A stretch of 64,000 nucleotides of DNA from a virus: the IMG/VR virus record IMGVR_UViG_3300046167_000453, positions 7,694 through 71,693 of that record, one strand, 5' to 3'. The notes beneath the pieces were generated by a model. That model saw nothing but the letters and a program-made list of their open reading frames with translations. It did not search any database and had not been told where the DNA came from. Both the position numbers and the translations under genes were made by a program. Shown one piece after another: positions 27,536-63,595 of the stretch. The first letter of the stretch is position 1. Every line of letters starts with the position of its first letter.

Positions 27536-27546
27536 TCTTATTCACC

Positions 27547-44618: not shown

Positions 44619-44629
44619 CCCTTACACCC

Positions 44630-46150: not shown

Positions 46151-46151
46151 C

Positions 46152-47585: not shown

Positions 47586-47589
47586 AATA

Positions 47590-48039
47590 TCACCATTTTA
47601 CTTTATTTGCCCAATAAGCGGCACTTGTTTTGCCTCTCTTGATGTTCTTAGCGTGTCGGCTCTTAAATGATTTGCGCTTGGCTTTCATTCTTTTGCTTTC
47701 ACCCTTCTTTGGTTTTCCGGCTACACTTGCGCCCTGTTCACCAAATCGAATTGTTTTTGTTTTCTTACCGTCTTTAACAACAACAACATGAGATTTCTTA
47801 GGATGCTTTGGTGTTCTCTTTGGCTTACTAAAACCGGAAACCCCCGCCCTCTTTAATGCAGGGTGTTTCTTTCTAAGTATTCTAAAATCTTCAGCATCCA
47901 ACTTTCCGTTCTTATTTTTATCAAGTTTCTTTTGCTTAGGACTTAAAGCCTTATTTGTTTTCTCTCTACAAGTTGCACAATCGCAATCCATTTTTTCAGT
48001 GCCACAATGGGCTTTTAAAACTTCTTTCCATTTACTCAT
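47590..48039 (-). CDS. Tagged basic protein with an EF-hand-like loop and an IRFG...SF..RH...AAYWA domain
   Basis: MSKWKEVLK; DKNKNGKLDAED; TIRFGEQG...SAAYWANKVKW. Confidence 0.7.
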   Translation of the reverse strand: MSKWKEVLKAHCGTEKMDCDCATCREKTNKALSPKQKKLDKNKNGKLDAEDFRILRKKHPALKRAGVSGFSKPKRTPKHPKKSHVVVVKDGKKTKTIRFGEQGASVAGKPKKGESKRMKAKRKSFKSRHAKNIKRGKTSAAYWANKVKW

Positions 48040-48437
48040 TTTTCTCGCCTCATTTGATTCTCTTTAGACTTTACATCATCATCAATTGGGCCACCTTTGG
48101 CCCAAGTATAACAAGTTCTTGCCGAATGGCATTTGAAATCGTGCATCCAACAATAACCTAAACGACCGTCTTTATCAGTAGATAGTGGCATACATTCATC
48201 CATTCTAGGAGATATGTCAAATGCAACACAGTTACTACAATTGGATTTCTTAGCAACCTTAGCAGTAGTATTCCATCGTTTAGCATATTCTTCCCAATAC
48301 TTTTCATCATTTAGATTAAGAGGCCCATATTGAATATGTTTTTCTTTAACAGCCCTATCTCGGTTTTTAGTATTTAATTTTAAGTTCTGCGTTGGCATAG
48401 GACAAGAGAGTTCCTTTATAATTATTTTCCAACTCAT
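48036..48437 (-). CDS. Tagged Cys-rich protein with a HiPIP-like Cys pattern
   Basis: MSWKIIIK; NCSNC...GYC...TCYTW. Confidence 0.7.
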   Translation of the reverse strand: MSWKIIIKELSCPMPTQNLKLNTKNRDRAVKEKHIQYGPLNLNDEKYWEEYAKRWNTTAKVAKKSNCSNCVAFDISPRMDECMPLSTDKDGRLGYCWMHDFKCHSARTCYTWAKGGPIDDDVKSKENQMRREK

Positions 48438-48658
48438 CTTGTAAACGCCCCTCTTCTTTTAGGCTTATGAGTATAAATGTCTCCATCTCGGTGCATAAAT
48501 ATTTTTCCTTTCTTTTGTAAATTAGATAGTGCTGCTTTAATTTCAGATTCTTCTCCAAACTGTTTTAGGTTCTTCATACCCAATGCACCGCCTTCTTTCT
48601 TAATTTCAGCAAGTATTTTTGCTTCAATGTCCATTTTTAATATATCTTCCCAATTCAT
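48434..48658 (-). CDS. Tagged small wHTH-like protein
   Basis: MNWEDILK; EAKILAEIKK...IKAALSNLQKKGKI. Confidence 0.65.
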   Translation of the reverse strand: MNWEDILKMDIEAKILAEIKKEGGALGMKNLKQFGEESEIKAALSNLQKKGKIFMHRDGDIYTHKPKRRGAFTR

Positions 48659-49038
48659 GCACCTTTCCTCCTTTTATAAGTTTTACAAGCACCACAAGTC
48701 GGCCTACATCTTTGTTTAGTTCCTTTAGAAGCATCTTTACGACCACAAGGTTTTGTTCCTTTCTTATCATCTTCACATGATTGACAAGAAACCCAACCCT
48801 TTTGTCCACCTCCACCTTTTCTTGAAAACCAACCGTGTAGTCCCGATTCTTTTTCTCTTTTGAAATTATCTCCGCCTTTCTTTACAGAATTGCCCCAATT
48901 CTTTGCACCAACTTTACGGCATTGAACCAAAGCACCGGAAGCATAAGCAGAAGGCCATTTCTTATATCGGCTTCTTACTTTGGTATAACAAGCATCCTTT
49001 TTCTTTTTCAATTCTTCAAACCAAAGTTCCGTCATCAC
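48655..49038 (-). CDS. Tagged basic Cys-containing protein (WPSAYASGA domain)
   Basis: LWFEELK; KKDACY...WPSAYASGALVQCRK; GLHGWF...KPCGR...CRP. Confidence 0.7.
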   Translation of the reverse strand: MMTELWFEELKKKKDACYTKVRSRYKKWPSAYASGALVQCRKVGAKNWGNSVKKGGDNFKREKESGLHGWFSRKGGGGQKGWVSCQSCEDDKKGTKPCGRKDASKGTKQRCRPTCGACKTYKRRKGA

Positions 49039-50309
49039 TTACCACCTCGGCTTTGGTCTTCGACATCATACCTTTCAGTGCTTGAACGAAGCATTTCATC
49101 TTGAATACCTAATAAACATTTATATCTTCGTTCTGGGAACTTAAGACCAATATTTAAATACATATCCACCATGTTCTTATTAATCTTTCCTAAATTAGAA
49201 TACCTAACAAACTTTTGCTTGTCGCCCATTAAATACTTGTCATCTCGAATAACTTTAATTAGGCCCTTCCACATACCCTTAGTGATTTTTTTATTGGACA
49301 TTCTAATTTTATTCTTTCGGGCCTTAACCAAATCAAACCAACTCCCTGTATTAGACTTAATCCACTTTTGCACTTGGTCTGCATATTTAGTATCTTTAAG
49401 TTCTTCTTGGATTTCTTCGGGAAGTTCTTCCACTTTCATATCCGTGAATCCTCTTTTTCTAAATGAACCCTGTTCTGCTAATTTTTCATTAGCAACATTG
49501 ATATACAAAGTTTTACTACCTTTCTCGGATAGAACCTTTTGAACACATAGCCCAAATAGGCCTTTTCCTTTGTAGTCTTCCCTTGTATGAATACCTGCGC
49601 CAAGTAGGACACTCTTATACTTTGCTATTCCACAAACTGCTACGGGAGTTTCACCATCAAATGCAACAAACATTGTTGCCGGTGCAGTAGCCCAAATAGA
49701 ATCCCTTGAAAGGTTTGGGCCATAGCGCATACTTCTTTTTACATAATCAAAGTAGCCATCATCATTAAATGCTTTAACTGCGGCATCCTCGGACATCTCC
49801 TTGAAAGTAATATCGCTTTCAGTATAGTTTTGCTTCTTGAAAGTAAGCCTTTGTCCTGTCGGATAATCAGTAGAATAAAGAGCCTTAGCATCCATTACCA
49901 TTTTCTTATACTCATCCGTAACCTTTCCATCAGGAGTAACGAAACTTGCACCCGATTCATTCTTTTTAGAAACGGCAATTGAATCCTGCTTATACTTCTT
50001 TGCTAATTTAAATATGTCTTTCATGTAATCTTCCGGAACATTCGTAAGCATAAAAGAAGGTTCTAATTCCCATTCAGCATTACCAGTAGCACTTGTAATA
50101 GTAAATGGAGTTTTGTCACCCTTTTTTATTTTATTATTTAATTCAGTTAAATCTTTGAGCATGGCATCGCTTAAGCGAGAGAGTTCTTTACTAGAAGTAG
50201 GTCTATTACCTTCCTTCGCAGCAATAAAAACATTACTGTTTTTCTTGCTAAGGTTTCTTCTAATCTGCTTCTTATTATAGGCAGGAAGAGTAGTCTGTCG
50301 TTTCTTCAT
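49035..50309 (-). CDS. Multidomain protein: DUF3293/SAM-lyase-like domain + GNAT acetyltransferase + basic tail
   Basis: EPSF...LAKKYKQDSI; HTREDYKGKGLF and FRKRGF GNAT motifs. Confidence 0.65.
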   Translation of the reverse strand: MKKRQTTLPAYNKKQIRRNLSKKNSNVFIAAKEGNRPTSSKELSRLSDAMLKDLTELNNKIKKGDKTPFTITSATGNAEWELEPSFMLTNVPEDYMKDIFKLAKKYKQDSIAVSKKNESGASFVTPDGKVTDEYKKMVMDAKALYSTDYPTGQRLTFKKQNYTESDITFKEMSEDAAVKAFNDDGYFDYVKRSMRYGPNLSRDSIWATAPATMFVAFDGETPVAVCGIAKYKSVLLGAGIHTREDYKGKGLFGLCVQKVLSEKGSKTLYINVANEKLAEQGSFRKRGFTDMKVEELPEEIQEELKDTKYADQVQKWIKSNTGSWFDLVKARKNKIRMSNKKITKGMWKGLIKVIRDDKYLMGDKQKFVRYSNLGKINKNMVDMYLNIGLKFPERRYKCLLGIQDEMLRSSTERYDVEDQSRGGK

Positions 50310-50313
50310 ACAA

Positions 50314-52899
50314 TCACCTAAAGTTCGCTTTCAAAACATATACATGCTCTGCATCAATTCCGTATTCCTTAGCAATACCTTCAAAAGAATCTACTGCTTT
50401 AACTACTCCAATAATCTCACTAGCACTCATATCAATGCTGAAATCTGTTTCCATCTTGGTAATCATGTTTTCCATATCATCATAACTATTTTCATTCTTC
50501 ATTGAATGAATAACTGATTTAGATTTTAATATTCGTAATGTATCATGTGCTTCAAGTAACTTTCGCTGTATTACACTCTTAGTAACTTTATCCAACAAAC
50601 CTAATAGCCTTTTAGCCTTTTCATTAGAAAAGGTTTCATTTTCTCCTTTTTCAGTTCTAATTTCTAAATTAGTTCCTCTCGTTTTAATAACATCTACTAG
50701 GGCTTGAATAGGATATATGTCAGTTGGGTCATTAGCATTCCTAGCATCATACAAATCACTCACCAATTCTTTATTTTTTGGAAATCTATTTTCTTTTTTA
50801 CCATCTATTTCTTTTTTCCCATCTTTAGGTATTAAGCGATAAATAGAACCCAATATTGAGCCGATGTCCTTACTTAAGTTTTTAGTGACAACATCATCAT
50901 CAAAAACATTTTTTAAAGTAAATAATAAAGTTCTAGACTTTTCGTATAGTTCAGAATAATTAGTAATATTATTTGCACCGGCTAAAGTCTGTAAATACTC
51001 AATAATATCTTCAATATCTTCTTCTTGTAAAAATGCAGTATCTCGTTCTAGCAATACTTTATTTATAGCAGTAATTGCTTGGTATTTTTCACCTATTGGC
51101 CTTGTTGCTGAAATCAACCTAATAGTAAAGTCTCCCTCGAATGGTAAACGAATACCTGCCCTGTATGGAGAAAATTGAGGGGCTAAGAAACAATTAGCCA
51201 TAGTCTTTGAGATTAGATTAACAATTACACTTATTTTTTCATCTAAGTCTTTTGCTTCCTTCATATCAGTCTTATCACTATCATATCTTTGAGAACCCTT
51301 TGAACCGGCCACATATTGCCCATAACTAAACCATATGAACGGCTTTCCTGAACCCCTACTTACCATTCTATCTTCGGGGTCTTTTGATGCTCGCTCAGTT
51401 CCTAAACCTGTCATATCTACATTTACTTGACTAGAAAGAGTAGTTTTATCTTTTTCTATAAATTCTTTAAATAACATTAAAAAATTATTTATTGTATCTT
51501 CTATTTCTCTCGCTTGTCCAGATAAAGTTCGATATTCATTTGCTAAAGCAGAATCATTAGCCATAAATATAGGCAAGTATAATTCATCTCCAACATCCTC
51601 AACAGATTCCAAATTTTCTAAAAAATTCTCAAATGTCGCTTTTACATCTTCTTCTTTGAGAGTAGGGTAATTTTCATTATTGTCAGAAAGGTCATCAAAA
51701 TATTCTTTCAACTCTTCTTTTAGTTCTTGTAAGTTAGTATTTACCATACCAATTCCTTTAAGTTGATTTCGGAAATATATTAAACCTAATGGGTCTAATG
51801 GTTGCTTCTCATCAAGAGTTTCAGAAAATTCTTCTATTTGAGCAGGCAAAGAATCTTCTTCTATCTTCTCATCTATATCGCTTGACTGTTGCATTTCTCC
51901 TTCTTGGTTATAGTATTTACTATAATCAATATTTTCATACAATCCTACATCTTGAACTTCCATAATACCTCCGATATAATTTAAGAAACTTTCAAATGCT
52001 TCATAGGCAACTACATCTATATCTTTCGTTGCTACTTCTGTTCTATCGAATTTATGTATATAGTTTAGACTCTTTCTGTTTTCTCCATCTGAGATGAATT
52101 GATATAGGGCTTGCATTTCCTTATCCTTTTTTGGTATTTCATCTAACAGTTTAGATAATTCTAGCAATTCATTGTTTAATTGCTCAAACGAATTATTTCC
52201 CTTGCCAACGCTTATATTTTCCCAATATTTGTAAGTATCTTCTCTTTTTTCGAAGTTTTTCATGCTTTTTGCATTAAAAACACTCTTAACATCGAAGCCA
52301 ATACCCATTCTAGCACTGACTCGTTGGCTTTCTTTGGACTCGCTACGGTTACTATAAGAGTCTTTTATTCTCTCAAATAGCCTACGCATGTTCCTTTTAA
52401 TGACAGAAGTTGCTTGCGTATCAGCAGTAAACTCGCTTTTTTTGAGAAGATTCTGCCATTTTCGCTTAATTTCATCCAAATCTATGGCTTTTTTACGCCT
52501 ATCTTGCTTCATTCCACCATTAACTAACTTTATTTCATCAGTGTCAAAATCATCTCGTATCATGTCACTAGCATTTAACTTTCTGCCCATATATCTAATT
52601 GCAGGTATGCTTCTAATTAGACCATTAAGTAAATTCTCATAAAGAGTAGCAGGAGTGGAGGCTCTACCAACGCCTCCCTTTGCTTTAAAGTAATCTTTTA
52701 TTTCTGCTATGATTTTTTTTCTTGTTTGGGGTTTGTCATCTCTATCTAAATCAATATATTTTTGGTTAAACATTGGCTCATATTCATTTCTTATTCTTTT
52801 TACCAATCCAGCCTTAACTTTAGTCAATTCTCTATATTTATCATAATCTAGAACAGATTCATAATTATCTATATAATGGGGTAAATACTCATATTTCAT
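50314..52899 (-). CDS. 861-aa helical hypothetical protein
   Basis: Long ORF. Confidence 0.7.
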   Translation of the reverse strand: MKYEYLPHYIDNYESVLDYDKYRELTKVKAGLVKRIRNEYEPMFNQKYIDLDRDDKPQTRKKIIAEIKDYFKAKGGVGRASTPATLYENLLNGLIRSIPAIRYMGRKLNASDMIRDDFDTDEIKLVNGGMKQDRRKKAIDLDEIKRKWQNLLKKSEFTADTQATSVIKRNMRRLFERIKDSYSNRSESKESQRVSARMGIGFDVKSVFNAKSMKNFEKREDTYKYWENISVGKGNNSFEQLNNELLELSKLLDEIPKKDKEMQALYQFISDGENRKSLNYIHKFDRTEVATKDIDVVAYEAFESFLNYIGGIMEVQDVGLYENIDYSKYYNQEGEMQQSSDIDEKIEEDSLPAQIEEFSETLDEKQPLDPLGLIYFRNQLKGIGMVNTNLQELKEELKEYFDDLSDNNENYPTLKEEDVKATFENFLENLESVEDVGDELYLPIFMANDSALANEYRTLSGQAREIEDTINNFLMLFKEFIEKDKTTLSSQVNVDMTGLGTERASKDPEDRMVSRGSGKPFIWFSYGQYVAGSKGSQRYDSDKTDMKEAKDLDEKISVIVNLISKTMANCFLAPQFSPYRAGIRLPFEGDFTIRLISATRPIGEKYQAITAINKVLLERDTAFLQEEDIEDIIEYLQTLAGANNITNYSELYEKSRTLLFTLKNVFDDDVVTKNLSKDIGSILGSIYRLIPKDGKKEIDGKKENRFPKNKELVSDLYDARNANDPTDIYPIQALVDVIKTRGTNLEIRTEKGENETFSNEKAKRLLGLLDKVTKSVIQRKLLEAHDTLRILKSKSVIHSMKNENSYDDMENMITKMETDFSIDMSASEIIGVVKAVDSFEGIAKEYGIDAEHVYVLKANFR

Positions 52900-52901
52900 A
52901 A

Positions 52902-54875
52902 CTATTCACTCTCTTGTTTTTTTTCTTTAAATATCCCAGCATTTTTTAATAAGTTAAATGTTTCTCCTGAGAAAATACCAGAATAGGATTCTTTGTTTTT
53001 AATTAAGTAGTTTAAGTGCAGTTTCAGTTCTTTCTTAAATAAAGTATTGACTTTTTTAAGCCCAATTAAGAGTTTTTTCGACAAGTCACTTACTGCTTGT
53101 TCCAAGGTTGGGTCTGTAAGTGATAAGGCTTCTCCTTCCTCTTCCATAATAGAGTCAATTTTTTCAACCTCACTATCTAAATTGGACTGTGCCACTTTAA
53201 CTACTAAGTAATAAGCCATAATAAAACAATCAATGATATCATACTGTTTAGAGAGTTTACTATAATACCTATCTAGATTACCATATTCAAAAACCAAATC
53301 AGAAAGAGGTTTTTTTGTCAATATTGCCCTTTCAATTGCAAATTTTATTGAATTTGGTGTAATTTCTGCTTTTTCAGCCGAACCTAAGTCTTCAGGCTTT
53401 ATTTCTTCTGGATTTTCTTTAATAAATTGTTTAAAGTTTCGCTCTATACGCCTAATAGTATTTATTCCTTTTTCATCAACTGCATGGTAAGCATCTCCAA
53501 CTTTAGAAAGGTCTTCTAAATCCTTTTCTACCGCAATTTCATCGTAATCGAGATAAATGTCCATCATTGACTGAGATATTCTCTTGTTATTTAAATATCT
53601 TTCATAATCTCTATCCAATGCTTCTTTAGTCCCTTCTTTATCTGCATCAAAGTTTTTACTTCGTTGAGAATATGCCGCCGTAAATTGTTTTTTACCCATA
53701 GCAGGTATGACTTGGACTCCTTCGGCAGCGTTTTCAAAAATAGAATCGTTATTTGGTGAAGTCAAAACCCCTTTAACGAATCTAATTGAGGCAACTTTCT
53801 TCCCCCCCGCAGGAAAGTGTATAACTTTTGAAATTCTTTGGTTATTTAAGGTTCTCATATACAAATCTTTACTACCTTTATTGTTTACCTTTCCTGCAAG
53901 CATTAAAATATTAAAATATTCTTCAATTTGTTTGGCTGTTAAAGACTTAACTGTATCAACATTTTGAGAAGAAGCAGTTTCCATTTCATCTACTTCTAAT
54001 CTAGCAGTAAATGGTTTTCTTCCGAGCAATATTCTTGGTAATAAGGGAGGAATACGGCTACTTATAGTTTCATCATCAGAAATATTACCTATTTTTTCAA
54101 CTAATTGTATAAATTGACTACTTTCTGTTTTACTTGAGCCACTTGGAGAATATTTTTCACTATCGCTACTAGGAAAAACCTTTCTCCAAGTCTCAAAATT
54201 TCTGCCGGATATATTTTTTTCTCCTTTTTCCCAACCTTCTATGGTTTCTTTACCAGAAGGTTCTGCTAAAGACAGTTCCGCCAACCCAAAATTGTAGATT
54301 GGTCTTGAATTTTCTAAAAAATCATTGACCGTAGGTTCACCTTCTTCGGGAATGTTATTAACATATAACTTATAAAGAGGTTTTCTTTTTTCTTTAGGTA
54401 TATCCCTAAGAATATGGTGCATTAAAGTTCCCCTTTTAAACTTATTAGTTAAATAAACAAATAATTTATTTAAATTAGACTCTATTTCTTTATTAGCAAA
54501 AATGTTTTCCAAAGTAGAACCTGCTGTTGAAACAGAAGAAGAAGAGAGTTTAGATATGTGTTCCCTAATTTTAACAAAATTATTAAAAATAGTGCTATTA
54601 ATTTCTTCTCTACCTTTACCTTCATTATTTTCTCTATCTTTTTTGAGTTGAGTTACCCAATCATCATACAATTTTCGATATTTGCTCGATTTTTTAAATG
54701 CTCTTTTTAATGACTGATAGGAATTAATATCTTTAAACTCCTGAACTAATTCCATTACTGCTTCAATGTTCTTACTTCTTTTACTTTTACCAGTAGTTAA
54801 TGCTATCTGAGCATCAGTAGAAACATCCGAAATTAGAACTAAATTAACTAATTCAGAAATAGGGGGTAAACTCAT
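52902..54875 (-). CDS. 657-aa hypothetical protein
   Basis: Long ORF; GGAGAGG SD. Confidence 0.7.
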   Translation of the reverse strand: MSLPPISELVNLVLISDVSTDAQIALTTGKSKRSKNIEAVMELVQEFKDINSYQSLKRAFKKSSKYRKLYDDWVTQLKKDRENNEGKGREEINSTIFNNFVKIREHISKLSSSSVSTAGSTLENIFANKEIESNLNKLFVYLTNKFKRGTLMHHILRDIPKEKRKPLYKLYVNNIPEEGEPTVNDFLENSRPIYNFGLAELSLAEPSGKETIEGWEKGEKNISGRNFETWRKVFPSSDSEKYSPSGSSKTESSQFIQLVEKIGNISDDETISSRIPPLLPRILLGRKPFTARLEVDEMETASSQNVDTVKSLTAKQIEEYFNILMLAGKVNNKGSKDLYMRTLNNQRISKVIHFPAGGKKVASIRFVKGVLTSPNNDSIFENAAEGVQVIPAMGKKQFTAAYSQRSKNFDADKEGTKEALDRDYERYLNNKRISQSMMDIYLDYDEIAVEKDLEDLSKVGDAYHAVDEKGINTIRRIERNFKQFIKENPEEIKPEDLGSAEKAEITPNSIKFAIERAILTKKPLSDLVFEYGNLDRYYSKLSKQYDIIDCFIMAYYLVVKVAQSNLDSEVEKIDSIMEEEGEALSLTDPTLEQAVSDLSKKLLIGLKKVNTLFKKELKLHLNYLIKNKESYSGIFSGETFNLLKNAGIFKEKKQESE

Positions 54876-54888
54876 TGTAACCTCTCCT

Positions 54889-55188
54889 TTATTTAGTTTC
54901 TAGCCATCGTAAAAATGCTTTATGTTTCTTAGTGTAATCACCCAAATTCACAATACCAGATTTTTCGCCCTTTTCATCTCTAGGAATAATCCTATCCATT
55001 TCTTCTTCTAAATCCTTTCCAAATTTAGCAACTGCTTCCTTGACTAATTTAGGAATATCTTTCATAGGTAGATTAGGGTTTTGAGAGACATGATAATCTA
55101 CTTGAAGGTAAATTTCGGGAAATTCCCTTTCTAATTCTTCATCGTAAGACCATATAGTTTCCTTTTTCAATATATTTTCCCAACTCAT
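54889..55188 (-). CDS. Tagged hypothetical protein (MSWENILK)
   Basis: N-terminal tag. Confidence 0.65.
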   Translation of the reverse strand: MSWENILKKETIWSYDEELEREFPEIYLQVDYHVSQNPNLPMKDIPKLVKEAVAKFGKDLEEEMDRIIPRDEKGEKSGIVNLGDYTKKHKAFLRWLETK

Positions 55189-55193
55189 ATTAA

Positions 55194-55640
55194 TCATTCC
55201 TGTTTTCTCCTATACCACATTGATAGGCGATTGTTTCTCTTTTTTACCAATTCTTCTTCTATTCCGTTAATTTGACTAATTGCTAAACTAATTTTAGTAA
55301 GGGCTTTCTCGACTAAAGGTTCATCCTCTTGGTTGTAATCCAAGTCAATTACTTCACCGTTCAAATCCCGTAGTTTTCTAAAAATGTATGATAAGTGAGA
55401 TGTAGTGTTATCGTATGTTGGATTATTTAAGTATCTTTCTTTATCTTCGTTTAGTCTATCCATAATGTCTTCAAATTCTTCTTCGCCGGAATCAAATGGG
55501 GGCTTATCAAAAATAGCAAGTGATTTAAGAGGGGATAAGGCTTCTATTACTTTATTATATAGATTTACTCCGGCGTAGTGTTTTCCATAGATGAAGTCTT
55601 CACGCTCATCATCTACTTTCAATATACTTTTCCAACTCAT
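55194..55640 (-). CDS. Tagged acidic hypothetical protein (MSWKSILK)
   Basis: N-terminal tag; GGAGAG SD. Confidence 0.65.
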   Translation of the reverse strand: MSWKSILKVDDEREDFIYGKHYAGVNLYNKVIEALSPLKSLAIFDKPPFDSGEEEFEDIMDRLNEDKERYLNNPTYDNTTSHLSYIFRKLRDLNGEVIDLDYNQEDEPLVEKALTKISLAISQINGIEEELVKKRNNRLSMWYRRKQE

Positions 55641-55656
55641 TTTAATCTCTCCTTTA

Positions 55657-56379
55657 TCAAAAAGTATCAAGAAGACCCTTTTCCATTAATATATACATTA
55701 GTCCTTCAAGTGCCTCTCTATCATATTTATTTTCTAAATCCTCAATAGCGTAGTTTACCTGTTCTTTAGTAAATTCATCAAACTTATTCATATTATCTTG
55801 TGCTAATTTAATTATCTTAGGAACGCTTTTTTTCCTGTTCTTTTCCTTGCTTGCTAGTTGCTTATTCCTAAGTCCTGAAAGGTCGAAATCTATACTGATA
55901 GTTTCGTCACCAACATTAACAATAAAAGGTTCACGCAAGTCCTCCATTTCCAAATAATGATAGTGGGGTGGATTGACATACTTCATTAGTCCGTGAACTA
56001 ATTCCTTAAATTTTTCCAAAGTGTATAGGTCTACTCTTCCACTCCATTTTAACTCAATTGGTTTATTTTGTTTGAGCCCTTTTTTTAGCGTATTTAAAAT
56101 TTCTAAAAACCACTCATTTAGCAGCCTACCGCCTAGTTTATTCATATCAAAATACACATTATACACATTATATTTAGGTTGTTGATAGGTTTGTCCGTCA
56201 CTACCTTCAGTATGGCTGACGCTTTCTACAACTCCTATCATCTCATCAATATACTCTACTTTAATATCATTATCTGTTTTAATTTTAGGTTTAGACCATC
56301 CGGTATTTACAGAACCTGTCTTTTTCCTTTTGGCATCTATTCTTCGGCCACTCCGCTTTAGTATGTCTTCCCAACTCAT
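55657..56379 (-). CDS. Tagged hypothetical protein (MSWEDILK)
   Basis: N-terminal tag. Confidence 0.65.
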   Translation of the reverse strand: MSWEDILKRSGRRIDAKRKKTGSVNTGWSKPKIKTDNDIKVEYIDEMIGVVESVSHTEGSDGQTYQQPKYNVYNVYFDMNKLGGRLLNEWFLEILNTLKKGLKQNKPIELKWSGRVDLYTLEKFKELVHGLMKYVNPPHYHYLEMEDLREPFIVNVGDETISIDFDLSGLRNKQLASKEKNRKKSVPKIIKLAQDNMNKFDEFTKEQVNYAIEDLENKYDREALEGLMYILMEKGLLDTF

Positions 56380-56615
56380 TTTAATCTCTCTTTAGATATA
56401 TTATTAACTCGTCGTATAGCATCATTGATAACTTCTATGATACTTTTTTTAAGAGGTAGGTCTTCTAGCGATACTTCACTTCGGTTCTTAACCAAAGTTA
56501 AAATTTCATATACTGCGTAATCGAGCATTGACTCTCTAGTATCACCTGCCTGTTCATCAAATCTTTTCAGCCTTTTTATAGATTTTGTCTTATTAATTTC
56601 ATCTTTCCAACTCAT
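56376..56615 (-). CDS. Tagged small protein (MSWKDEINK)
   Basis: Variant tag; ATGA coupling. Confidence 0.6.
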   Translation of the reverse strand: MSWKDEINKTKSIKRLKRFDEQAGDTRESMLDYAVYEILTLVKNRSEVSLEDLPLKKSIIEVINDAIRRVNNISKERLK

Positions 56616-57280
56616 TGTAATCTCTCCTGCATCTTTTTCTTAATGTCAAGCCAAATCTCAGGATTGTTCTGTGCTAACACTTCTTGAACAACCTGCATCT
56701 GTGCGACAATAATTGTATCTTGTCTCTTGTGAACAAGTTTGCCTTTGAACTCAAGTAGATACTTTAATGACTCTCGAACTTCTTTTGCAAGTTTAGTAAG
56801 ACTATCAATCTCTCTTGGTTCTAAATCTGTATTAAGGAACAAGTCATTCAATTTATCATCTAAGCGTTGAACATTCGCACTAAGCAAATCAATCTCATTA
56901 ACTTCCTTTTTCGCTATGATAGCGGCTGCGGATTGCTGCACCAAAGGTGCTAAGTGGTGCTTCATGTGTCGTTGCACCTGTGTTTTTGTGATGTCTAAGG
57001 CTTGAGAAATACCCTCACTTGTTATATTACCATTAGAAAGGGCTTCCTCGTAGTGTTTACGCATAGGGTCAATACATAACTTGCATTTGGGGTTACTGCT
57101 GTTTGTATATTCACCCATGTGATTTCTTTGATGTTGGGCCGCAGTCCCACTTCTCCAATCATTTCTTGAATCTAAATCGTCGCAACTTGTCATGCCTTGT
57201 TCAATTGCGGCTTCCATACTTTCCCTGTCGCCATGCTGACAAAAGGCACATCTCTTTCTTGTTATCATTCTTTCACCCAC
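56612..57280 (-). CDS. Tandem Zn-finger/HTH plus coiled-coil protein; candidate terminase small subunit
   Basis: Two CxxC...HxxxH repeats with HTH-like cores; oligomerisation-type helices. Confidence 0.55.
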   Translation of the reverse strand: MGERMITRKRCAFCQHGDRESMEAAIEQGMTSCDDLDSRNDWRSGTAAQHQRNHMGEYTNSSNPKCKLCIDPMRKHYEEALSNGNITSEGISQALDITKTQVQRHMKHHLAPLVQQSAAAIIAKKEVNEIDLLSANVQRLDDKLNDLFLNTDLEPREIDSLTKLAKEVRESLKYLLEFKGKLVHKRQDTIIVAQMQVVQEVLAQNNPEIWLDIKKKMQERLQ

Positions 57281-57578
57281 ATTGTTGTTTTTAAGTCACT
57301 AGTATTTGCACTCATTTCTTTTGTAGTATAACCATAGTTTCTTAGTAATTTAGAATATGCTCTCAAACTTTCTTGTTTACCTTTTAGCCTATTAAGTCCT
57401 GCTTTTTCTTCTCTAGTTCCCAATTCATTAACTACTTCAGTATAAGTTGATATTAGTTTTTCATCCAAATCTTTAGTGTTGATTCCTTTACCGTCTAATT
57501 CCTCTACAATTCTTCTAATTGTTTCTTTGACTAATTGAAAATTAAATTTCTTTCTTTTCAAGATACTGAACCAAACAT
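57265..57578 (-). CDS. Tagged hypothetical protein (probable true start M-V-W-F-S-I-L-K)
   Basis: TGG TTC AGT ATC TTG AAA in frame upstream of the called start; nearby ATG is one base out of frame. Confidence 0.55.
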
Positions 57579-58687
57579 CAATCCCTCCAAAGTTGTTCCA
57601 TCCAAGATTTCTTTACTGGTTCAGGGACTTTAGTTTTACCTTTAATATCTAAGTAATTACCATTCTTAAGTTTGTAAGTTTCTTTACCAATCACCTTCAT
57701 AATTAGAGAAACCATAGCGGCTTTTCCAAATGGTAGTAATTGAAATGTTTCTATTGGGCTAGCCAAATTAGGTAAATTACCTACATATTGAATAATTAAC
57801 TGCGGCTTTGCAGACCTAGCACCAAAAGACTTTGTTCCAACGGCAAACTGCATACCTTGTAATATAGTAGCCATTTGTTGCAATTTAGGTTTACCTCCAG
57901 AAAATAAATCATTTCTCTTTAACAAAGCAAAAACTTGTTTTCTTACCGAAGGAATTAGAGCCAAAGAACCTGCACTTCTTTGCACCTTGAGTTGGATATT
58001 AGGAATGGGCTTTTTCTTTATTTCTTCTATTGCTTCTGATATTATATCATATAGCCCCACCTTTACTAATTTACCTTTTCCATAAATGGCCTGTGCTAAT
58101 GGAGGGTTAGCAGTATTAGGAGTTTTACTCCACCAATCATTTTTTTCCTCAAGGCCGTATTTATCTTCAAAGTAATTATCTCGATAATGACCGTAAATTG
58201 TTTCTTTTTTATCATCTAATATTTCTATTTTATTTTTTGCCCGACTACCTTTTCTTGGTTTTCCCTTACCCACTTTCCATCGTGTTGGTCTGGTAAAGAC
58301 AGTATTTCTAGGATTAAGAGTAGGGCTTTTCGTAATGCCATCAAGTTTTTCTTTTAGTTCCAAAAAATCTTCTAAGTCATCTACATCAAATATGCTTTTA
58401 TTTGCTATCAGTTCATCAATATCATCTAATGTTTCAAATATGCCATCATTACCACTATTCTTAGAATTGTCTCTAAGATACTTTCTTACATGTTGTTGCA
58501 ATTGTAAATACAATGTTTTGGGGTAAGTTTGCCTCCCAACTTTAGCATAAGGACTTCCAGTGCTTGCTATATCTTCCGAACTGATGCCATTACATGTTTT
58601 TTTCCAGTCCAAAAACTTTTTCTTGAAATTGTAAGTGGGTGCTTGTAATTTATTACCGTTAATATCAATCGTCGCTTTCTTCGTCAT
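57578..58687 (-). CDS. Lys-rich hypothetical protein
   Basis: GGAGGTGA SD before MTKK; ends KKSWMEQLWRD. Confidence 0.65.
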   Translation of the reverse strand: MTKKATIDINGNKLQAPTYNFKKKFLDWKKTCNGISSEDIASTGSPYAKVGRQTYPKTLYLQLQQHVRKYLRDNSKNSGNDGIFETLDDIDELIANKSIFDVDDLEDFLELKEKLDGITKSPTLNPRNTVFTRPTRWKVGKGKPRKGSRAKNKIEILDDKKETIYGHYRDNYFEDKYGLEEKNDWWSKTPNTANPPLAQAIYGKGKLVKVGLYDIISEAIEEIKKKPIPNIQLKVQRSAGSLALIPSVRKQVFALLKRNDLFSGGKPKLQQMATILQGMQFAVGTKSFGARSAKPQLIIQYVGNLPNLASPIETFQLLPFGKAAMVSLIMKVIGKETYKLKNGNYLDIKGKTKVPEPVKKSWMEQLWRD

Positions 58688-58826
58688 CTTCATCACCTCC
58701 GTATTTAATATTAAACTTTGAAGGGTCGTTGCCATGACCCCCAAACGCTACACCTCCGGCTTCCTTATTCAAGTTGCCGCAGGATTCGCAACAAGAGCCT
58801 TTGATTATGTCCCACCAAGTTACCAT
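58665..58826 (-). CDS. 53-aa tagged micro-protein (MVTWWDIIKGSCCESCG...), below the ORF-track size cutoff
   Basis: Hand-translated; fills the intergenic gap and carries the tag. Confidence 0.65.
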   Translation of the reverse strand: MVTWWDIIKGSCCESCGNLNKEAGGVAFGGHGNDPSKFNIKYGGDEDDEESDD

Positions 58827-59377
58827 TTGAACACCAACTTCTTCAAATATTTGCTAATGTGTTTTTTTCCATCGTTGTAATCCTTAGACTTAAAACTTAA
58901 ATTTCGCAGTATGGCTACACTTGTGCCATTTTTGGTCTTAACGAACACCACCACATACATACCAATTTCGTCATTTGCATACATATCTAAAGCAAGTTTA
59001 ATATTTCCTTTTTGACTTTCAAAAGGAATATAAGTGTAGCGTGATTCACCTGCCTCAATAATCTCCCGAAGTGTCATAGTTAAACCACTTTCCAAAACAG
59101 GGGGGAAAGGCTGTTTAATAAAATCTAAAAATTCACAATATTCTTTTTCCGTAGCCTTCATACCAGACAAAGAATCATTGACAACCTGTTGAAGTTCGAC
59201 TTCAATAGGAAAAGTGAATGCCATTTCGTTAAGTTCGCTTTGTTCCATAAGCCAATTACGAAAATCTTTTTCGCAAGAATTATCCTCAACATTAACCTTA
59301 AGTCGAGAAGTATCTAGTTTACCACCAGTTTTTCCTTTGCCTCTAATTTTGGCATTCTTAAGAATATCCCACCACAT
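58820..59377 (-). CDS. Tagged paralog family member 1 (MWWDILKNAK...LDTSRLKVNV)
   Basis: Shared approx. 35-aa N-terminus. Confidence 0.7.
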   Translation of the reverse strand: MWWDILKNAKIRGKGKTGGKLDTSRLKVNVEDNSCEKDFRNWLMEQSELNEMAFTFPIEVELQQVVNDSLSGMKATEKEYCEFLDFIKQPFPPVLESGLTMTLREIIEAGESRYTYIPFESQKGNIKLALDMYANDEIGMYVVVFVKTKNGTSVAILRNLSFKSKDYNDGKKHISKYLKKLVFKW

Positions 59378-60039
59378 TATTTCCACCAACTTAAACCAAA
59401 CTCTTTCGATTCATAATATCCAGAAACTCGATAAATTAAATCAGGTGTTATATACTTTAAATCCTCATTAACAGAATCCTTTCGTGCTCTTACATTTCCT
59501 CCATTAGTCCAAAAAAGACTAATGGCATCCAATCCTTCATTTGAAATGACGAGGCCATTGCCATTAGATTCATTGTTACGAAGCAATTTTCTATGATTAT
59601 AAACAACTATCTCATATTTGCCAATCTTTTCCCTGTCTTCACTACCATAGTCGCCAGTTGTAGATTTTTTAAGCATATCAATTGCTTTACATGCTACATT
59701 CTCAGGAACAGGGTTATAGAGATAAGAAACATATTCAAATATAGACCCGCCAGTAAGAGGCGAAGCAAATTTTTTAGAAATTGGTTTGTAAGTAATTTGA
59801 AAATCTTTACTAGTATCATCTATATCGGCTGTGCTAATTATAAAGTGCGTTTTTAAGAAGTTATTATCATCATAGCGTTTTGTCAAAAGTAAATTATAAT
59901 TCTTTAATTTATTCGCCCACTCTTGTAGTTGTTTATTACACTCATTGTCTTGGACATTAACCTTTAATCTAGAAGTATCTAAAGTCTTGCCTTTGCCCCT
60001 TGCAGACAACTTGGCATTTTTTAGAATATCCCACCACAT
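59377..60039 (-). CDS. Tagged paralog family member 2
   Basis: MWWDILKNAK...LDTSRLKVNVQDNEC. Confidence 0.7.
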   Translation of the reverse strand: MWWDILKNAKLSARGKGKTLDTSRLKVNVQDNECNKQLQEWANKLKNYNLLLTKRYDDNNFLKTHFIISTADIDDTSKDFQITYKPISKKFASPLTGGSIFEYVSYLYNPVPENVACKAIDMLKKSTTGDYGSEDREKIGKYEIVVYNHRKLLRNNESNGNGLVISNEGLDAISLFWTNGGNVRARKDSVNEDLKYITPDLIYRVSGYYESKEFGLSWWK

Positions 60040-60044
60040 TATAA

Positions 60045-60713
60045 TCACCTTAAAATAGAATTTAATTTTTGCTGTGCGTCAGAAAATCGGATAGCATCCC
60101 ATATTTGTTTAACATGTTCGTCTTGGTTGTCATATGGGGTAAAGAAGCCACGACTCATAGAAATACCTATATTGACTTTTTTAGGATAAGCACCAGCCGC
60201 TACATAATTAAAAGGATAATCATAACCTAATTCTGGGCTACCTTTTTTGTTTGAAGTTTCTAATCTTGGGTCAATATCATATTCGTAAAGGTTGGTGCTC
60301 TTTGCTTTTTCTGAATTGAACATATCTATTAACTTACATGCGGCTTCTTCATCAATAGGTTCATATTTACGATATACATATATAGACAAATTGCCTCGAT
60401 TGATTCTAGTTGGTAGTCTGTATGTTGTAGTAGATATTGATGACGAAACTACCAAATCCAGTGGTGCTGTTCCTTCACGGCCATCAGTATGACTTTTAGC
60501 ATTCGTTGGAGGATTATTCTCGTTTATTTTTTTAATAGTTTCGCTTATTACTGTCTGTATTTTTTTAGCGTAAGCCTCACAAAAATCATGAGCCTCTTTT
60601 AATTTCCTATTACAGTTATCATCCTCGACATTGACTTTTAGTCGAGAAGTATCTAATGCTTTACTTTTAGGTTTAGAACCCAGTCTAGCATTTTTTAAAA
60701 TATCCAACCACAT
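60045..60713 (-). CDS. Tagged paralog family member 3
   Basis: MWLDILKNAR...LDTSRLKVNVEDDNC. Confidence 0.7.
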   Translation of the reverse strand: MWLDILKNARLGSKPKSKALDTSRLKVNVEDDNCNRKLKEAHDFCEAYAKKIQTVISETIKKINENNPPTNAKSHTDGREGTAPLDLVVSSSISTTTYRLPTRINRGNLSIYVYRKYEPIDEEAACKLIDMFNSEKAKSTNLYEYDIDPRLETSNKKGSPELGYDYPFNYVAAGAYPKKVNIGISMSRGFFTPYDNQDEHVKQIWDAIRFSDAQQKLNSILR

Positions 60714-60717
60714 TTAA

Positions 60718-61482
60718 TCACTTCCTTTTACCTTCAAACATTTTATCTTTGTTTTTGGGTTCAATCATCTTAATTGACTTAGGGACAGAAGCACCACGCA
60801 TATTACAGCGTCTAAGGATAACTTCTCCTTTAACATTACACTTAGTAAAATCAACACCTCTTAGGTCACAATCTTCAAATGTAACATTTCCAAGAGTAGC
60901 ATTCTTAAAATCTGCTCTACTAAAGTTACATAGTTTAATTACTCCGGCAGGGTCTTGCTTTCGATAAAAAGCGAAAAGAGCGTTCTTAAAACTACAACGC
61001 TTAAATGATATTTTCTTGAGTCGAATAGGTGTGGTTTTCTTTCCGGTCTTTCTTGTAAACTTACCTTTTCCGCTTGGTTTTGGTTCGGGCTTAGATAAGT
61101 CTAATTCATACTTACCTTTCTTCTTTTGTCCCGCTTGTGCAACACCTTCAAACTTAGAACGACCAGTGCGACCTGTCTTATTGCTTTCTTTTGCTTCTTT
61201 TCGACTGACTCTTTCTTCTACTAAGCGACCTCTTTCATCTCGCTTAGGTGGATATTTCATTTCAGTATATTTAACAGACTTTCTTTTATCTATCAGTTTA
61301 CCATTGAATTTTTCACCATCGAAGGATTTACCATCCATAATCAAATATTGACCGGCAGGTAATGTGCTACTGAACTTTTCTTTTCTATCAACGAATCCTT
61401 CAACATGGCCTTCATCAGTAACCTTTCTTTTCTTGGCCTCTATTTTATCCCACTTTCGCTTTAGAATACTTTGCCAACTCAT
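60718..61482 (-). CDS. Tagged basic protein with C-terminal pentapeptide repeats
   Basis: MSWQSILK; ISFKR CSFKN; CNFSR ADFKN ATLGN VTFED CDLRG VDFTK. Confidence 0.8.
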   Translation of the reverse strand: MSWQSILKRKWDKIEAKKRKVTDEGHVEGFVDRKEKFSSTLPAGQYLIMDGKSFDGEKFNGKLIDKRKSVKYTEMKYPPKRDERGRLVEERVSRKEAKESNKTGRTGRSKFEGVAQAGQKKKGKYELDLSKPEPKPSGKGKFTRKTGKKTTPIRLKKISFKRCSFKNALFAFYRKQDPAGVIKLCNFSRADFKNATLGNVTFEDCDLRGVDFTKCNVKGEVILRRCNMRGASVPKSIKMIEPKNKDKMFEGKRK

Positions 61483-61491
61483 ATAATCAAC

Positions 61492-62178
61492 TCACTCTTT
61501 AAGAATACCCTTCCAATCCATTTTGTTTGCCTGTTGAAAGGCTTCCGAAAACTTATCGTCAGTAATGTCAATATCTGGTTCTGTTTCCAGTGAAAGTTTC
61601 TTAGAATCATCTGTCATCTTACGAATAAGCGCACTTGTGATAATAGCAATATAATCAACAAACGCCCCACTTTTAATAACTGGCATAATTGCTTGAGTAA
61701 GTTCGTGCTTTTTCTGACTAGAAATTTCCGGCATTTTCTTATCAACTATTTCAGTTATTTCATTTCTAAACTCACTCATGACTTTTGCTGCGGAATCGTC
61801 AATTACTTTTTGTAGGGCTTGAATCAATTCTTCAGAATTAGAATCAGAACTATCTTTTTCGTCTTTTGGCCCAATGTCCGAAACAGTGTCTCTTTCGATA
61901 ACATTAATTCGGTCTTCCATTTCTGGGTCATTCATCATATCTAATCCAATAAGCATAGGTTCTAATAGAACAACTTCTGCTATTTTTCTTTTATTTGTAA
62001 CTGTAAGACCTTCTTCTCCCTCAAGTGACTTAAGAGCATCACCTAAAAGATTACCACCTAATTCTGTTAATTGAGGAGTAATTTGAATTCTTCCAAGAAC
62101 TTTACTATAAATGCCTCTAGAATCTTTGATAATATCTCTAAACGAGAAGTCTGCTTTTATTATATTTTTCCAAGTCAT
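61492..62178 (-). CDS. Helical protein tagged at both termini
   Basis: MTWKNIIK ... MDWKGILKE-stop. Confidence 0.7.
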   Translation of the reverse strand: MTWKNIIKADFSFRDIIKDSRGIYSKVLGRIQITPQLTELGGNLLGDALKSLEGEEGLTVTNKRKIAEVVLLEPMLIGLDMMNDPEMEDRINVIERDTVSDIGPKDEKDSSDSNSEELIQALQKVIDDSAAKVMSEFRNEITEIVDKKMPEISSQKKHELTQAIMPVIKSGAFVDYIAIITSALIRKMTDDSKKLSLETEPDIDITDDKFSEAFQQANKMDWKGILKE

Positions 62179-62188
62179 ATCATTCACC

Positions 62189-62680
62189 TTAGTATTTACC
62201 AAAATTAAAGCCCGTAGATTTTCGACTTCCAGTGAATTCTGATTTTTCAGGCTTTTTAAATTTATTTATTGAATCTTTGATGGCTTGCTTAATCCTATTT
62301 CTTAAACCATCTTTCCCATTAACTTTATCTTTTGGTTTTAAATCAAGTTCATTACCTTTGACAAATCCAATTTGACCCATAGTTTTATCTCTATTAGTAT
62401 ATCGAACTCGCAAGTCATATCGAACCTTTTCTTCACCAAGATTTCTTGCAATAATTTTAATGCCGCAACCTACTTCGGAATCAATGGGTGGATTTGTTAG
62501 CCTACCACTAATTTTTGCTACTTCAAATCTAGCCTTTCTTTTAGAATCAACTAATCCTTCATAGCCTAATGCTGCTTCTTTTAACTTAGATTTCAATTCA
62601 GTAATATATTCTTCAATATCTACTTCTAATTGTTCTCCAGTATTCATATCTTCAACTTTTAAAATATCTTTCCAATTCAT
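62189..62680 (-). CDS. Tagged hypothetical protein (MNWKDILK)
   Basis: N-terminal tag; GGAAGTGA SD. Confidence 0.65.
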   Translation of the reverse strand: MNWKDILKVEDMNTGEQLEVDIEEYITELKSKLKEAALGYEGLVDSKRKARFEVAKISGRLTNPPIDSEVGCGIKIIARNLGEEKVRYDLRVRYTNRDKTMGQIGFVKGNELDLKPKDKVNGKDGLRNRIKQAIKDSINKFKKPEKSEFTGSRKSTGFNFGKY

Positions 62681-62693
62681 GTTATTCACTTCC

Positions 62694-63005
62694 TTAGAAT
62701 TCTCCGCCGGAATCATCATAGGGCTGGTATGTTTTCCTTTTAGGGAAAGTTTCATCCCATGATTCTTCTACTATTTTTAAAAGAAGTTGCTTTGCTTCTG
62801 TTAATGACTGTTCTCTATCAGTAGTTCTATTATATGTATATCCTTCTGGGTGCTTATAACCCTCACTATCATAATCTACAATTAAATTATCTTTTAAGAA
62901 CTTCTTCATTTTTTTCTTAAAAGAAGCATCTTTCATTCTTTTGATTAATGCCTTTACTTTATCTTTTATTCCTTTTTCAAGTTTAAGTTGTTCTTCCCAA
63001 GTCAT
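62694..63005 (-). CDS. Tagged hypothetical protein (MTWEEQLK)
   Basis: Variant tag. Confidence 0.6.
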   Translation of the reverse strand: MTWEEQLKLEKGIKDKVKALIKRMKDASFKKKMKKFLKDNLIVDYDSEGYKHPEGYTYNRTTDREQSLTEAKQLLLKIVEESWDETFPKRKTYQPYDDSGGEF

Positions 63006-63018
63006 GTTATTATCCCCT

Positions 63019-63270
63019 TTATTCTATTATATCTAGGCTAGTTGCTTCCATCTTAGAAGCCTTTACTAAAATGCTCGATATATGCTCATCCAGTTGTTCT
63101 ATAATTTGAGCCATTGTTTCTCTATCCTCAAACATGCTTTTTTTATATTTAAATATTAGTTTATCTGTTATCACATCTAATTTTCTCATATTATCTTTTA
63201 TTCTTTTAATCTCATCATACTTATCTGTAAAATGTTTTTCATCTTCTTTTATTATATCTTCCCAATTCAT
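63019..63270 (-). CDS. Tagged coiled-coil protein (MNWEDIIK)
   Basis: N-terminal tag. Confidence 0.65.
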   Translation of the reverse strand: MNWEDIIKEDEKHFTDKYDEIKRIKDNMRKLDVITDKLIFKYKKSMFEDRETMAQIIEQLDEHISSILVKASKMEATSLDIIE

Positions 63271-63480
63271 GTTATTATCCCCTATTAAATACAATAATCA
63301 TTAAATCCATAATAAATTGTCGAAGTTTCTCATTTTCCTTAGCAGTAAATGTCTTTCCTACAAGACTATCCCTATATTCGCCAATTGCCTTTAATTTTCT
63401 TCTAATAGATGCTGAATCAAATCTCGGCTCTTCTTTTTTAATACTGTCTTTCCAATTCATGTGATTATCTCCTATTAAAT
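63257..63480. repeat. Direct repeat of gene-junction sequence (63257-63290 vs 63447-63480, 31/34 identical)
   Basis: tcttYccaattcatgtKattatcYcctattaaat. Confidence 0.75.
63275..63460 (-). CDS. Tagged small protein (MNWKDSIK)
   Basis: Variant tag; AGGAG SD. Confidence 0.6.
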   Translation of the reverse strand: MNWKDSIKKEEPRFDSASIRRKLKAIGEYRDSLVGKTFTAKENEKLRQFIMDLMIIVFNRG

Positions 63481-63595
63481 TTAATGAATATTGCTTTTTG
63501 AAAAAATGTGGCGGAATTTTTGTGGCACTAGCAAAATTTTTTAATTGATTTATTATGTATTCCCAGTTTAAAAATAGTTATTTTAATAATAATAT

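Follow-up and report, generated by a model that had tools for sequence, protein, structure and literature searches.

Unrelated proteins of a magrovirus-type virus share a short peptide tag that resembles the tails of two head proteins and candidate prohead-protease sites

Encapsulin cargo proteins are unrelated to each other and carry short terminal peptides that bind the inner face of an HK97-fold shell, and the maturation protease of phage HK97, which cuts after Lys, enters the prohead by means of its own C-terminus. Prohead proteases of this S78/HK97 family are generally active inside proheads. The internal proteins of T-even phages are described as diverse, with the capsid targeting sequence (CTS) as their only common element (PMC3012670), and the T4 CTS is reported to direct proteins into the prohead, from where the injected proteins counter host defences (PMC3012670; PMC9024508). 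According to PMC9024508, the N-terminal 30 residues of DarB of phage P1 suffice to address a reporter to the capsid, and incoming DNA is protected by the cargo. A C-terminal peptide is described for the scaffold of phage 80alpha and for CpmB of SaPI1, which have in common a helix-and-hook that contains the motif RIIK and attaches to the capsid protein (PMC5644958). Here we analyse a 64,000-nucleotide stretch of viral DNA (the window; bases 7694–71693 of the 71,693-base record IMGVR_UViG_3300046167_000453, rated 77% complete), in which an array of genes for otherwise unrelated proteins, packed against the gene of the large terminase subunit (terL), begins with an eight-residue tag of the type M-x-W-x-x-I-L-K. 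An earlier reading of the letters without database searches (the sequence-only reading) had proposed that this tag loads the proteins into the capsid. We found that the two halves of the tag are alike (i) to the C-terminal tails of two head proteins and (ii) to motifs flanking the protease domain and near the N-terminus of the capsid protein. A docking peptide derived from the scaffold tail and joined to a prohead-protease site, T4-CTS-like in its working, is on balance the probable explanation. By the comparisons made here these likenesses are new; the tag is not mentioned in the main text of the magrovirus papers examined, whose supplementary files might list it, and no description was returned by keyword or tag-peptide searches.

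As in the T4 system (IPI–III and Alt), a short N-terminal peptide is the sole common element of diverse, small, hypervariable proteins with a bias towards basic composition. The two peptides differ in that they show no sequence relation, and in that the tag described here ends in Lys, resembles a scaffold tail and occurs internally and C-terminally as well. Five genomes (four complete genomes and that of the window, called with a simple ATG-only caller of open reading frames, ORFs) hold 11–23 tagged genes each, equal to 9–18% of their called ORFs, compared to a handful in T4, and the host here is presumably archaeal. The protease is of the HK97 type (Pfam S78; PHROG head maturation protease), whereas T4 has its own type, and because the protease family differs we ruled out membership in the T4 system by descent. 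Packaging and cleavage are proven for T4 and predicted here. With P1 DarB it shares the use of an N-terminal stretch as capsid address, which was shown to be sufficient in P1 and is predicted here, but the P1 signal of ~30 residues is not a motif common to many genes and loading proceeds via stepwise helper proteins. In HK97, unlike here, the scaffold is the N-terminal domain of the capsid protein, and no cargo gene family uses the tail. An encapsulin-type compartment was ruled out by the presence of terminase, portal, tail tube and replication module, encapsulins being DNA-free cellular compartments.

We defined a strict tag as M-x(0–2)-W-x-x-[ILVM]-[ILVMN]-K at an ATG and recovered every ORF start that the sequence-only reading had named, each at its coordinate. 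Fifteen ORFs of 53–254 amino acids (aa), all on the minus strand and thus starting at the higher coordinate, carry the strict tag 1–3 codons behind the opening ATG. Beginning next to terL, these are the ORFs at 47590–48039 (149 aa, MSKWKEVLK), 48036–48437 (133 aa, Cys-rich, MSWKIIIK), 48434–48658 (74 aa, MNWEDILK), 54889–55188 (99 aa, MSWENILK), 55194–55640 (148 aa, MSWKSILK), 55657–56379 (240 aa, MSWEDILK) and 58665–58826 (53 aa, Cys-rich, MVTWWDIIK), followed by three tagged paralogs at 58820–59377 (MWWDILK), 59377–60039 (MWWDILK) and 60045–60713 (MWLDILK) and by the ORFs at 60718–61482 (254 aa, MSWQSILK), 61492–62178 (228 aa, MTWKNIIK), 62189–62680 (163 aa, MNWKDILK) and 63019–63270 (83 aa, MNWEDIIK). 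The fifteenth, an outlier starting at 26402 (25857–26402, 181 aa, MNWFDIIK), is real as well; it lies among the tail genes and has no Pfam or PHROG match. Degenerate starts are found in four further minus-strand ORFs: 48655–49038 (MTELWFEELK with the ATG at 49035; phrog_727, 1e-18), whose relatives read MTELWFEVLK and MTELWFDIIK, 56376–56615 (79 aa, MSWKDEINK), 62694–63005 (103 aa, MTWEEQLK) and 63275–63460 (61 aa, MNWKDSIK), upstream of which lies the only long gap of the array (135 nucleotides, nt). The minus-strand ORF at 57265–57590 reads WFSILK at 57573 with no in-frame ATG, GTG or TTG ahead of it and a nearby ATG one base out of frame. In relatives WFSILK stands behind an ATG, with 11 occurrences at ORF starts in 80 loci, and the start lost here (57540–57620) points to a cargo gene in decay or to an error of sequencing.

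Scanned in all six frames, the window as a whole contains 27 matches to W-x-x-[ILVM]-[ILVMN]-K, 24 of them on the minus strand, and no plus-strand match at any ORF start. From 63460 to the terminase the ORFs overlap or are separated by gaps of ≤16 nt, so that the array does run into terL (46152–47585, minus strand), which begins 4 nt downstream of the last tagged ORF. The proteins had been described as unrelated behind the Lys apart from the paralog trio, and a comparison of 20 window proteins without their tags (one entry being read out of frame) found similarity at E<1e-3 for only 3 of 190 pairs, all within that trio (58820–60713). The pentapeptide repeat named in the sequence-only reading is confirmed in ORF 60718–61482 (Pfam PF00805, 3.3e-11); for the winged helix named there, ORF 48434–48658 gives only weak matches below cutoff (E 0.019).

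We then considered two clades of related loci, clade 1 with 80 loci (terminase 80–100% identical, 1.35 Mb) and clade 2 with 80 loci (terminase 59% identical, 0.97 Mb). The 580 tagged ORFs of 80 loci and the window group into 202 single-linkage families with a median length of 117 aa, and the family representatives give the consensus M-[S/N/T]-W-[K/E/Q]-[D/N/E]-I-L-K, with no residue preference at any position behind the tag Lys. The same residues emerge if they are not imposed: at 994 ORF starts of the form M-x(0–2)-W from the 160 loci, the share with I at W+3 is 62%, that with L at W+4 is 61% and that with K at W+5 is 78%. The family of the 133-aa Cys-rich protein (48036–48437) was compared over the window protein plus 29 distinct relatives: its x positions change freely, but no exchange is seen at W, I or K and hardly any at the second aliphatic residue. 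With one representative per family, I, L and K of the tag are encoded by all of their synonymous codons, at frequencies near those of the rest of the same ORFs (ATA 0.58 and ATT 0.39; six Leu codons at 0.03–0.33 each; AAA 0.79 and AAG 0.21). Because these positions use all synonymous codons, the conserved signal is at the level of the protein, and a DNA-level motif is rejected as the primary cause of tag conservation. Conservation of the DNA only, which the sequence-only reading had named as incompatible with its proposal, is thus not what is found.

For the likeness to head proteins, the 202 tag families were turned into a position-weight matrix, with which all non-N-terminal 8-mers of the five genomes were scored. 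The head genes of the window include a prohead protease fused to a scaffold region (34808–36043, minus strand, 411 aa; Pfam S78 over aa 22–176, PHROG head maturation protease families), which ends in the tail MDWSDIHKMVNNI (34811–34849, minus strand). Its 8-mer MDW[SN]DIHK ranks 2–4 of 20,747–28,634 8-mers per genome, behind only internal or C-terminal tags, and 76 of 77 complete relatives retain MDWSDIHK together with the five residues that follow. The same scan exposed this tail on a second head protein as well, which has ~80 aa and orthologs in the sister genomes G001–G004. In the window this is a 79-aa protein with a GTG start (39257–39496, minus strand), composed of a helical N-terminal part, a linker rich in Ser, Pro, Gly and Asn, and the tail MDWSDIHKMVEKVGGQ (39260–39307, minus strand). 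In clade 2, where the protease-scaffold is 46–50% identical, the tails read E-M-S-W-x-E-[IVL]-[NH]-[DE] on the protease-scaffold and M-D-W-x-[DE]-[IL]-[HN]-x-[FL]-V on the small protein; the Lys is missing from them, but with their first six residues they still rank within the top 0–67 of 132,674 positions. Within the sequences compared, tags and tails share M-x-W-x-[D/E]-I, the first six residues of the tag. This arrangement is similar to that of 80alpha and CpmB in that a conserved scaffold C-terminal peptide is also found on a second, different protein, here on the protease-scaffold and the 79-aa protein. The cargo tags appear to copy the first half of the tail, and their aliphatic-aliphatic-Lys ending is reminiscent of the RIIK of 80alpha; there, in contrast, the borrower is the size-redirecting scaffold of a satellite and not cargo, and the peptide is strictly C-terminal. 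The tail likeness lends indirect support to capsid targeting. Co-folding of the capsid protein (alignment of 73) with residues 1–40 of a tagged family scored 0.00 and allows no verdict.

The second half of the tag recurs at both edges of the protease domain. EFNILK (aa 15–20; 35984–36001, minus strand) lies just before the catalytic domain of the protease-scaffold and KFDILK (aa 168–173; 35525–35542, minus strand) at its end, with a linker of variable length behind. The motif F-x-[IV]-[LI]-K ahead of the domain is found in 80/80 clade-1 loci and, as E-F-x-[VI]-L-K, in 5/5 clade-2 genomes; F-x-aliphatic-aliphatic-K at the domain end is likewise found in 80/80 clade-1 loci and, as K-F-[EN]-[IL]-[VI]-K, in 5/5 clade-2 genomes. 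Proteome-wide, the KFDILK 8-mer ranks 6–9 with the tag matrix. The major capsid protein (33458–34795, minus strand, 445 aa) carries a conserved NALLK at aa 25–29 (34709–34723), where x-L-L-K at aa 27–29 is kept despite a loop of variable length before it; clade 2 reads N-x-L-[ILM]-K, and distant capsid homologs keep a Lys ahead of a conserved D-A-P segment. NALLK is a candidate maturation cut site. In the proteins compared the Lys ending is specific to tags and protease-domain edges, and the recurring aliphatic-aliphatic-Lys fits clipping after K, as the sequence-only reading had suggested, without proving cleavage. A search of solved structures with the protease domain gave no useful match, with a best E-value of 0.087, to plant proteins.

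These motifs raise the question whether the tag is a processing signal only, i.e., a pro-peptide that keeps the proteins inactive or is trimmed, with head entry, if any, by other means. The invariant Lys and aliphatic pair recurring at the protease-domain edges and near the capsid N-terminus in two clades, the sharp drop of conservation right behind K and the polyprotein-like placement of internal tags at domain junctions would all agree with such a role. It would leave the first half of the tag without explanation: the putative protease sites contain neither the invariant Trp nor the M-x-W-x-D/E-I half and have F at −4 or, in the capsid protein, no counterpart, and this half is shared with the tails, which are Lys-less in clade 2. 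Since proteases of the family generally act inside proheads, cleavage would moreover still imply entry. We therefore regard processing alone as improbable.

The tagged genes are confined to the strand of the head genes. Tagged ORF starts number 563 on the terL strand and 0 on the other in clade 1, and 178 and 0 in clade 2, so that the tag marks ORF starts on one strand only, a kind of enrichment for which the sequence-only reading had proposed a motif scan. In the five genomes 82 of 615 ORFs are tagged, 81 of 320 on the head-gene strand and 1 of 295 on the other (replication) strand; most tagged ORFs lie between the strand switch and the head genes. On the DNA level, the pattern ATG-NNN-TGG-N6-ATH-YTN-AAR has 27 matches in four virus genomes (384 kb), all on the head-gene strand. 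A terminase search in cellular genomes returned mis-binned contigs (titled Maricaulis and Altibacter), a Thermoplasmatales metagenome-assembled genome (MAG; 31% identity) and a weak partial match to an Acidobacteriaceae MAG (28% identity), and gave no host assignment. In 301 cellular genomes of the phylum of the Thermoplasmatales-titled MAG, among which the true host may not be included, the DNA pattern has 163 matches with a maximum of 5 per genome.

The gene arrangement also bears on a different explanation, in which the tag docks to a shared partner other than the capsid, such as a chaperone of the virus or the host, a proteasome activator or unfoldase, or a factory for replication or assembly, the tagged proteins being unpackaged host-takeover proteins and the scaffold and 79-aa tails using the same partner. 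The array is promoter-proximal and adjoins the strand switch, where early genes often lie, the tagged share of the genome is large, the cargo is mostly unannotated, and magroviruses are described to encode chaperonins (PMC5434244). On the other side, only 1 of the 295 replication-strand ORFs is tagged, the array adjoins terL at a distance of 4 nt, and the sole bearers of the motif that are not cargo are two head-assembly proteins, which carry it C-terminally, as is described for the scaffold-capsid contact in 80alpha (PMC5644958). A non-capsid partner is therefore in our view unlikely.

Beyond the starts listed in the sequence-only reading, the motif is also found inside ORFs and at a C-terminus. 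The minus-strand ORF at 49035–50309 (424 aa; borderline matches to S-adenosylmethionine lyase and GNAT) has no N-terminal tag and contains the tag-like motifs SWFDLVK (49323–49343) and MWKGLIK (49254–49274). The 861-aa ORF at 50314–52899 (minus strand) contains RKWQNLLK (aa 147–153; 52441–52461), which is kept in the related locus L001 and ranks third among the non-N-terminal 8-mers of the genome. ORF 61492–62178 carries a second tag, MDWKGILKE followed by the stop codon (61495–61521), and this C-terminal tag is the top-scoring non-N-terminal 8-mer of the genome. On the terminase strand we counted 15 non-N-terminal motifs within ten residues of the C-terminus and 62 inside called ORFs. At least 23 internal tags mark the exact boundary to a domain which elsewhere forms a tagged ORF of its own, with flanks conserved in several divergent loci. 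By its positions in these ORFs the motif is not tied to the N-terminus. Internal and C-terminal tags therefore rule out explanations that require a free N-terminus or a start codon.

The boundaries of the tagged genes often coincide with breaks in DNA homology. Between the array (47586–64000) and 79 related loci (L002–L080), 46% of the homology blocks end ≤30 nt from the ATG of a tagged gene, compared to 7% at random (n = 345, non-independent). Contigs from RNA libraries show joints at tag positions (60032–60707, 60041–60715 and 56390–56607) and thereby skip exactly one paralog or one small gene lying between two tags. Four RNA-library runs contain 5–7% of the sampled words; over 44001–64000 their contigs cover short patches of the array and of the terminase region alike, for which DNA carry-over is possible and from which no strand, level or timing can be derived. 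Both sets of breaks could be taken to indicate that conservation serves the nucleic acid, either as a translation-initiation region or as short homology for cassette shuffling, with the peptide as a by-product. Against this stand the use of all synonymous codons at I, L and K, the variation of the x positions within orthologs in which W, I, L and K are fixed, and the retention of the motif inside or at the end of ORFs, far from starts, so that we consider this reading extremely improbable. In a secondary role, the tag-coding stretch may be a place where cassettes are exchanged; we read such shuffling as following from the tag and not as what the tag is for.

The composite of docking peptide and protease site, which we prefer, would work as follows. 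The first half of the tag, M-x-W-x-D/E-I, would imitate the tail by which the protease-scaffold and the 79-aa protein presumably dock inside the assembling shell, and tagged proteins would thereby be co-assembled into the prohead. The second half, aliphatic-aliphatic-Lys, would be a site of the HK97-type (S78) prohead protease, and a cut after the Lys would free the cargo from the shell wall. The freed proteins, which are small, soluble and often basic, would remain with the DNA and pass into the host upon infection. As the tag is short and lies at gene boundaries, new genes could gain a tag or be swapped in behind one, and the cargo set would stay variable. The model would explain why (i) tags always end in Lys while tails need not, (ii) conservation stops sharply behind the Lys and internal tags mark domain junctions, and (iii) only head proteins share the motif and the tagged genes adjoin the head genes.

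Several observations weigh against this model. Each functional step, i.e., docking, cleavage, packaging, injection and an anti-host role, is one that we infer. The likeness between tag and tail comprises four positions (M, W, D/E and I), of which M is the start codon in tags; His at W+4 is almost never found in tags and always in clade-1 tails; and such a tail is missing from the protease of the haloarchaeal virus HVTV-1. KFDILK is located within the Pfam-aligned part of the protease (22–176) and may be an element of the fold and not a cut site. A tag-like cut site in the capsid protein was rejected, as NALLK ranks only 553–2799 with the matrix. In a distant capsid lineage (five loci, capsid protein 45–47% identical) no tagged ORFs are found near the head genes. 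The tagged share of 9–18% of called genes per genome amounts to far more cargo species than any known phage packs, and one representative of a tagged family matches the membrane phosphatase family PAP2. For the capsid loading put forward in the sequence-only reading this leaves a divided result: a real and portable protein-level signal, its confinement to the strand of terL and the head genes and the gaps of ≤16 nt into terL are in its favour, while the capsid protein's own site does not have the form of the tag.

More tentatively, the tag may be part of a programmable delivery system, in which a zip code taken from the scaffold tail and a protease site load, release and deliver hundreds of effector families and the tag-coding sequence acts as cassette joint. 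If so, archaeal viruses would have their first cargo-addressing system for virions, with a repertoire of virion-delivered effectors larger than any known. If the docking-and-cleavage model is correct, one eight-residue peptide would unite a large share of the unannotated genes of abundant marine archaeal viruses and provide a simple way to list likely injected effectors, and thereby a catalogue of candidate host-takeover or counter-defence proteins for the uncultured marine group II archaea. It would further show a cargo address evolving by the copying of a scaffold docking tail and foreign proteins could be loaded into an HK97-fold shell with a tag that is small and defined.

The tagged proteins differ from other ORFs in composition and turnover. 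Their median isoelectric point is 8.7, compared to 6.0 for untagged ORFs. No homolog in any of four sister genomes was found for 51 of 78 tagged ORFs and for 48 of 226 untagged ORFs of the same strand, whereas a homolog in all four was found for 5 of 78 and 137 of 226, respectively; the tagged genes form a hypervariable compartment of the genome. Pfam matches at 1e-3 were obtained for 4 of 150 representatives of tagged families. AlphaFold2 modelled the 133-aa Cys-rich protein from 30 sequences with a mean predicted local distance difference test (pLDDT) score of 42.5, too low to be informative.

Membrane-like segments are present in only 5 of the 580 tagged ORFs, and as the residues behind the Lys are charged and unconserved, a secretion signal or membrane anchor, which would have a hydrophobic core of ~15–20 residues behind the N-terminus, was ruled out. 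The related notion that the tag is the beginning of a helix that is amphipathic, acts on membranes or binds surfaces, and would bring the proteins to the cell membrane, draws on the position of W, I and L on one helix face, on the basic stretch with which the paralog trio (58820–60713) continues, and on the hexapeptide WKDILK, which is frequent among the tags of this virus family and turns up in papers on dermaseptin antimicrobial peptides from frog skin. This is opposed by the scarcity of membrane-like segments, by the lack of a conserved amphipathic pattern behind the Lys, by a length of eight residues, too few for a stable membrane helix, and by the presence of the same motif on the scaffold tails of a head-tailed virus, and we consider it very improbable. 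The likeness between tags and dermaseptins is probably a convergence of short amphipathic helices.

One cargo domain can be followed outside the array. Residues 57–149 of the protein encoded at 47590–48039 form a basic domain (phrog_7595, 1.6e-37) that is 60–75% identical to stand-alone phage proteins; the homologs of Roseobacter phage CRP-1 and Synechococcus phage S-CBS2 have 88 and 96 residues and are untagged, and in each of 42 phage records the match spans less than 80% of the query. Because these bacteriophage homologs stand alone and without tag, the tag is, as judged for this domain, an add-on to an existing cargo domain. The 42 records comprise Roseobacter, Synechococcus, Prochlorococcus and other marine bacteriophages, and their similarity to the domain suggests recent gene flow between viruses of bacteria and archaea.

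The remaining genes of the window place the virus. The head-tail module occupies the minus strand from 47585 down to ~9000 and includes the portal protein (42975–44618, minus strand) and a tail-tube-like gene. Embedded in it are an ATP-dependent DNA ligase domain (37346–37957, minus strand, 2.3e-17) and, between terminase and portal, a nuclease-like insert of 455 aa (44783–46150, minus strand) with a weak match to a PHROG HNH endonuclease family (7.6e-6). By eye, a segment of the latter presumably resembles a LAGLIDADG motif. The left end of the plus strand encodes a family B polymerase and PD-(D/E)XK and ERCC4 nucleases. A comparison of the capsid protein with 50,697 deposited phage records yields matches to tailed haloarchaeal viruses and a single Methanofastidiosa virus only, and related sister genomes in IMG/VR are 94.9–96.5 kb long and rated 100% complete by CheckV. 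Magroviruses are described as carrying a structural module with an embedded ATP-dependent DNA ligase and homing endonuclease (groups A and B, the endonuclease also in group D) and a head-tail module that resembles that of haloarchaeal viruses (PMC5434244). Because of the ligase and the homing-endonuclease-like insert, the haloarchaeal-type head-tail module and the archaeal-type replication genes, the window matches this published description (PMC5434244). By gene content, and with sister genomes in the range of 65–100 kb, the virus matches the magrovirus type, i.e., the tailed viruses of marine group II archaea.

Four further ORFs or genes of the window stand out. A conserved 121-aa head-module ORF (39493–39858, minus strand) starts with MTWDFYEE and has EIILK at aa 11–15; its orthologs start with MTWDYY, and this start may be a variant tag with an insertion. 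Among the tail genes a 222-aa ORF (30802–31470, minus strand) has below-cutoff matches to small GTPase families (Arf, Ras and SRP receptor beta), which are unexpected at this place. The ligase-containing gene, a single ORF of 822–841 aa in the sister genomes G001 and G004, is distributed in the window over three minus-strand ORFs, 38001–38606, 37346–37957 (with the ligase domain) and 36082–37380, and this split (36082–38606) could result from frameshifts, assembly errors or a genuinely broken gene. On the plus strand at 14–2670, the family B polymerase match is partial to the profile and lies in a 294-aa ORF (1786–2670) with short ORFs upstream, so that the polymerase gene may be split, as is described for magrovirus group B1 (PMC5434244).

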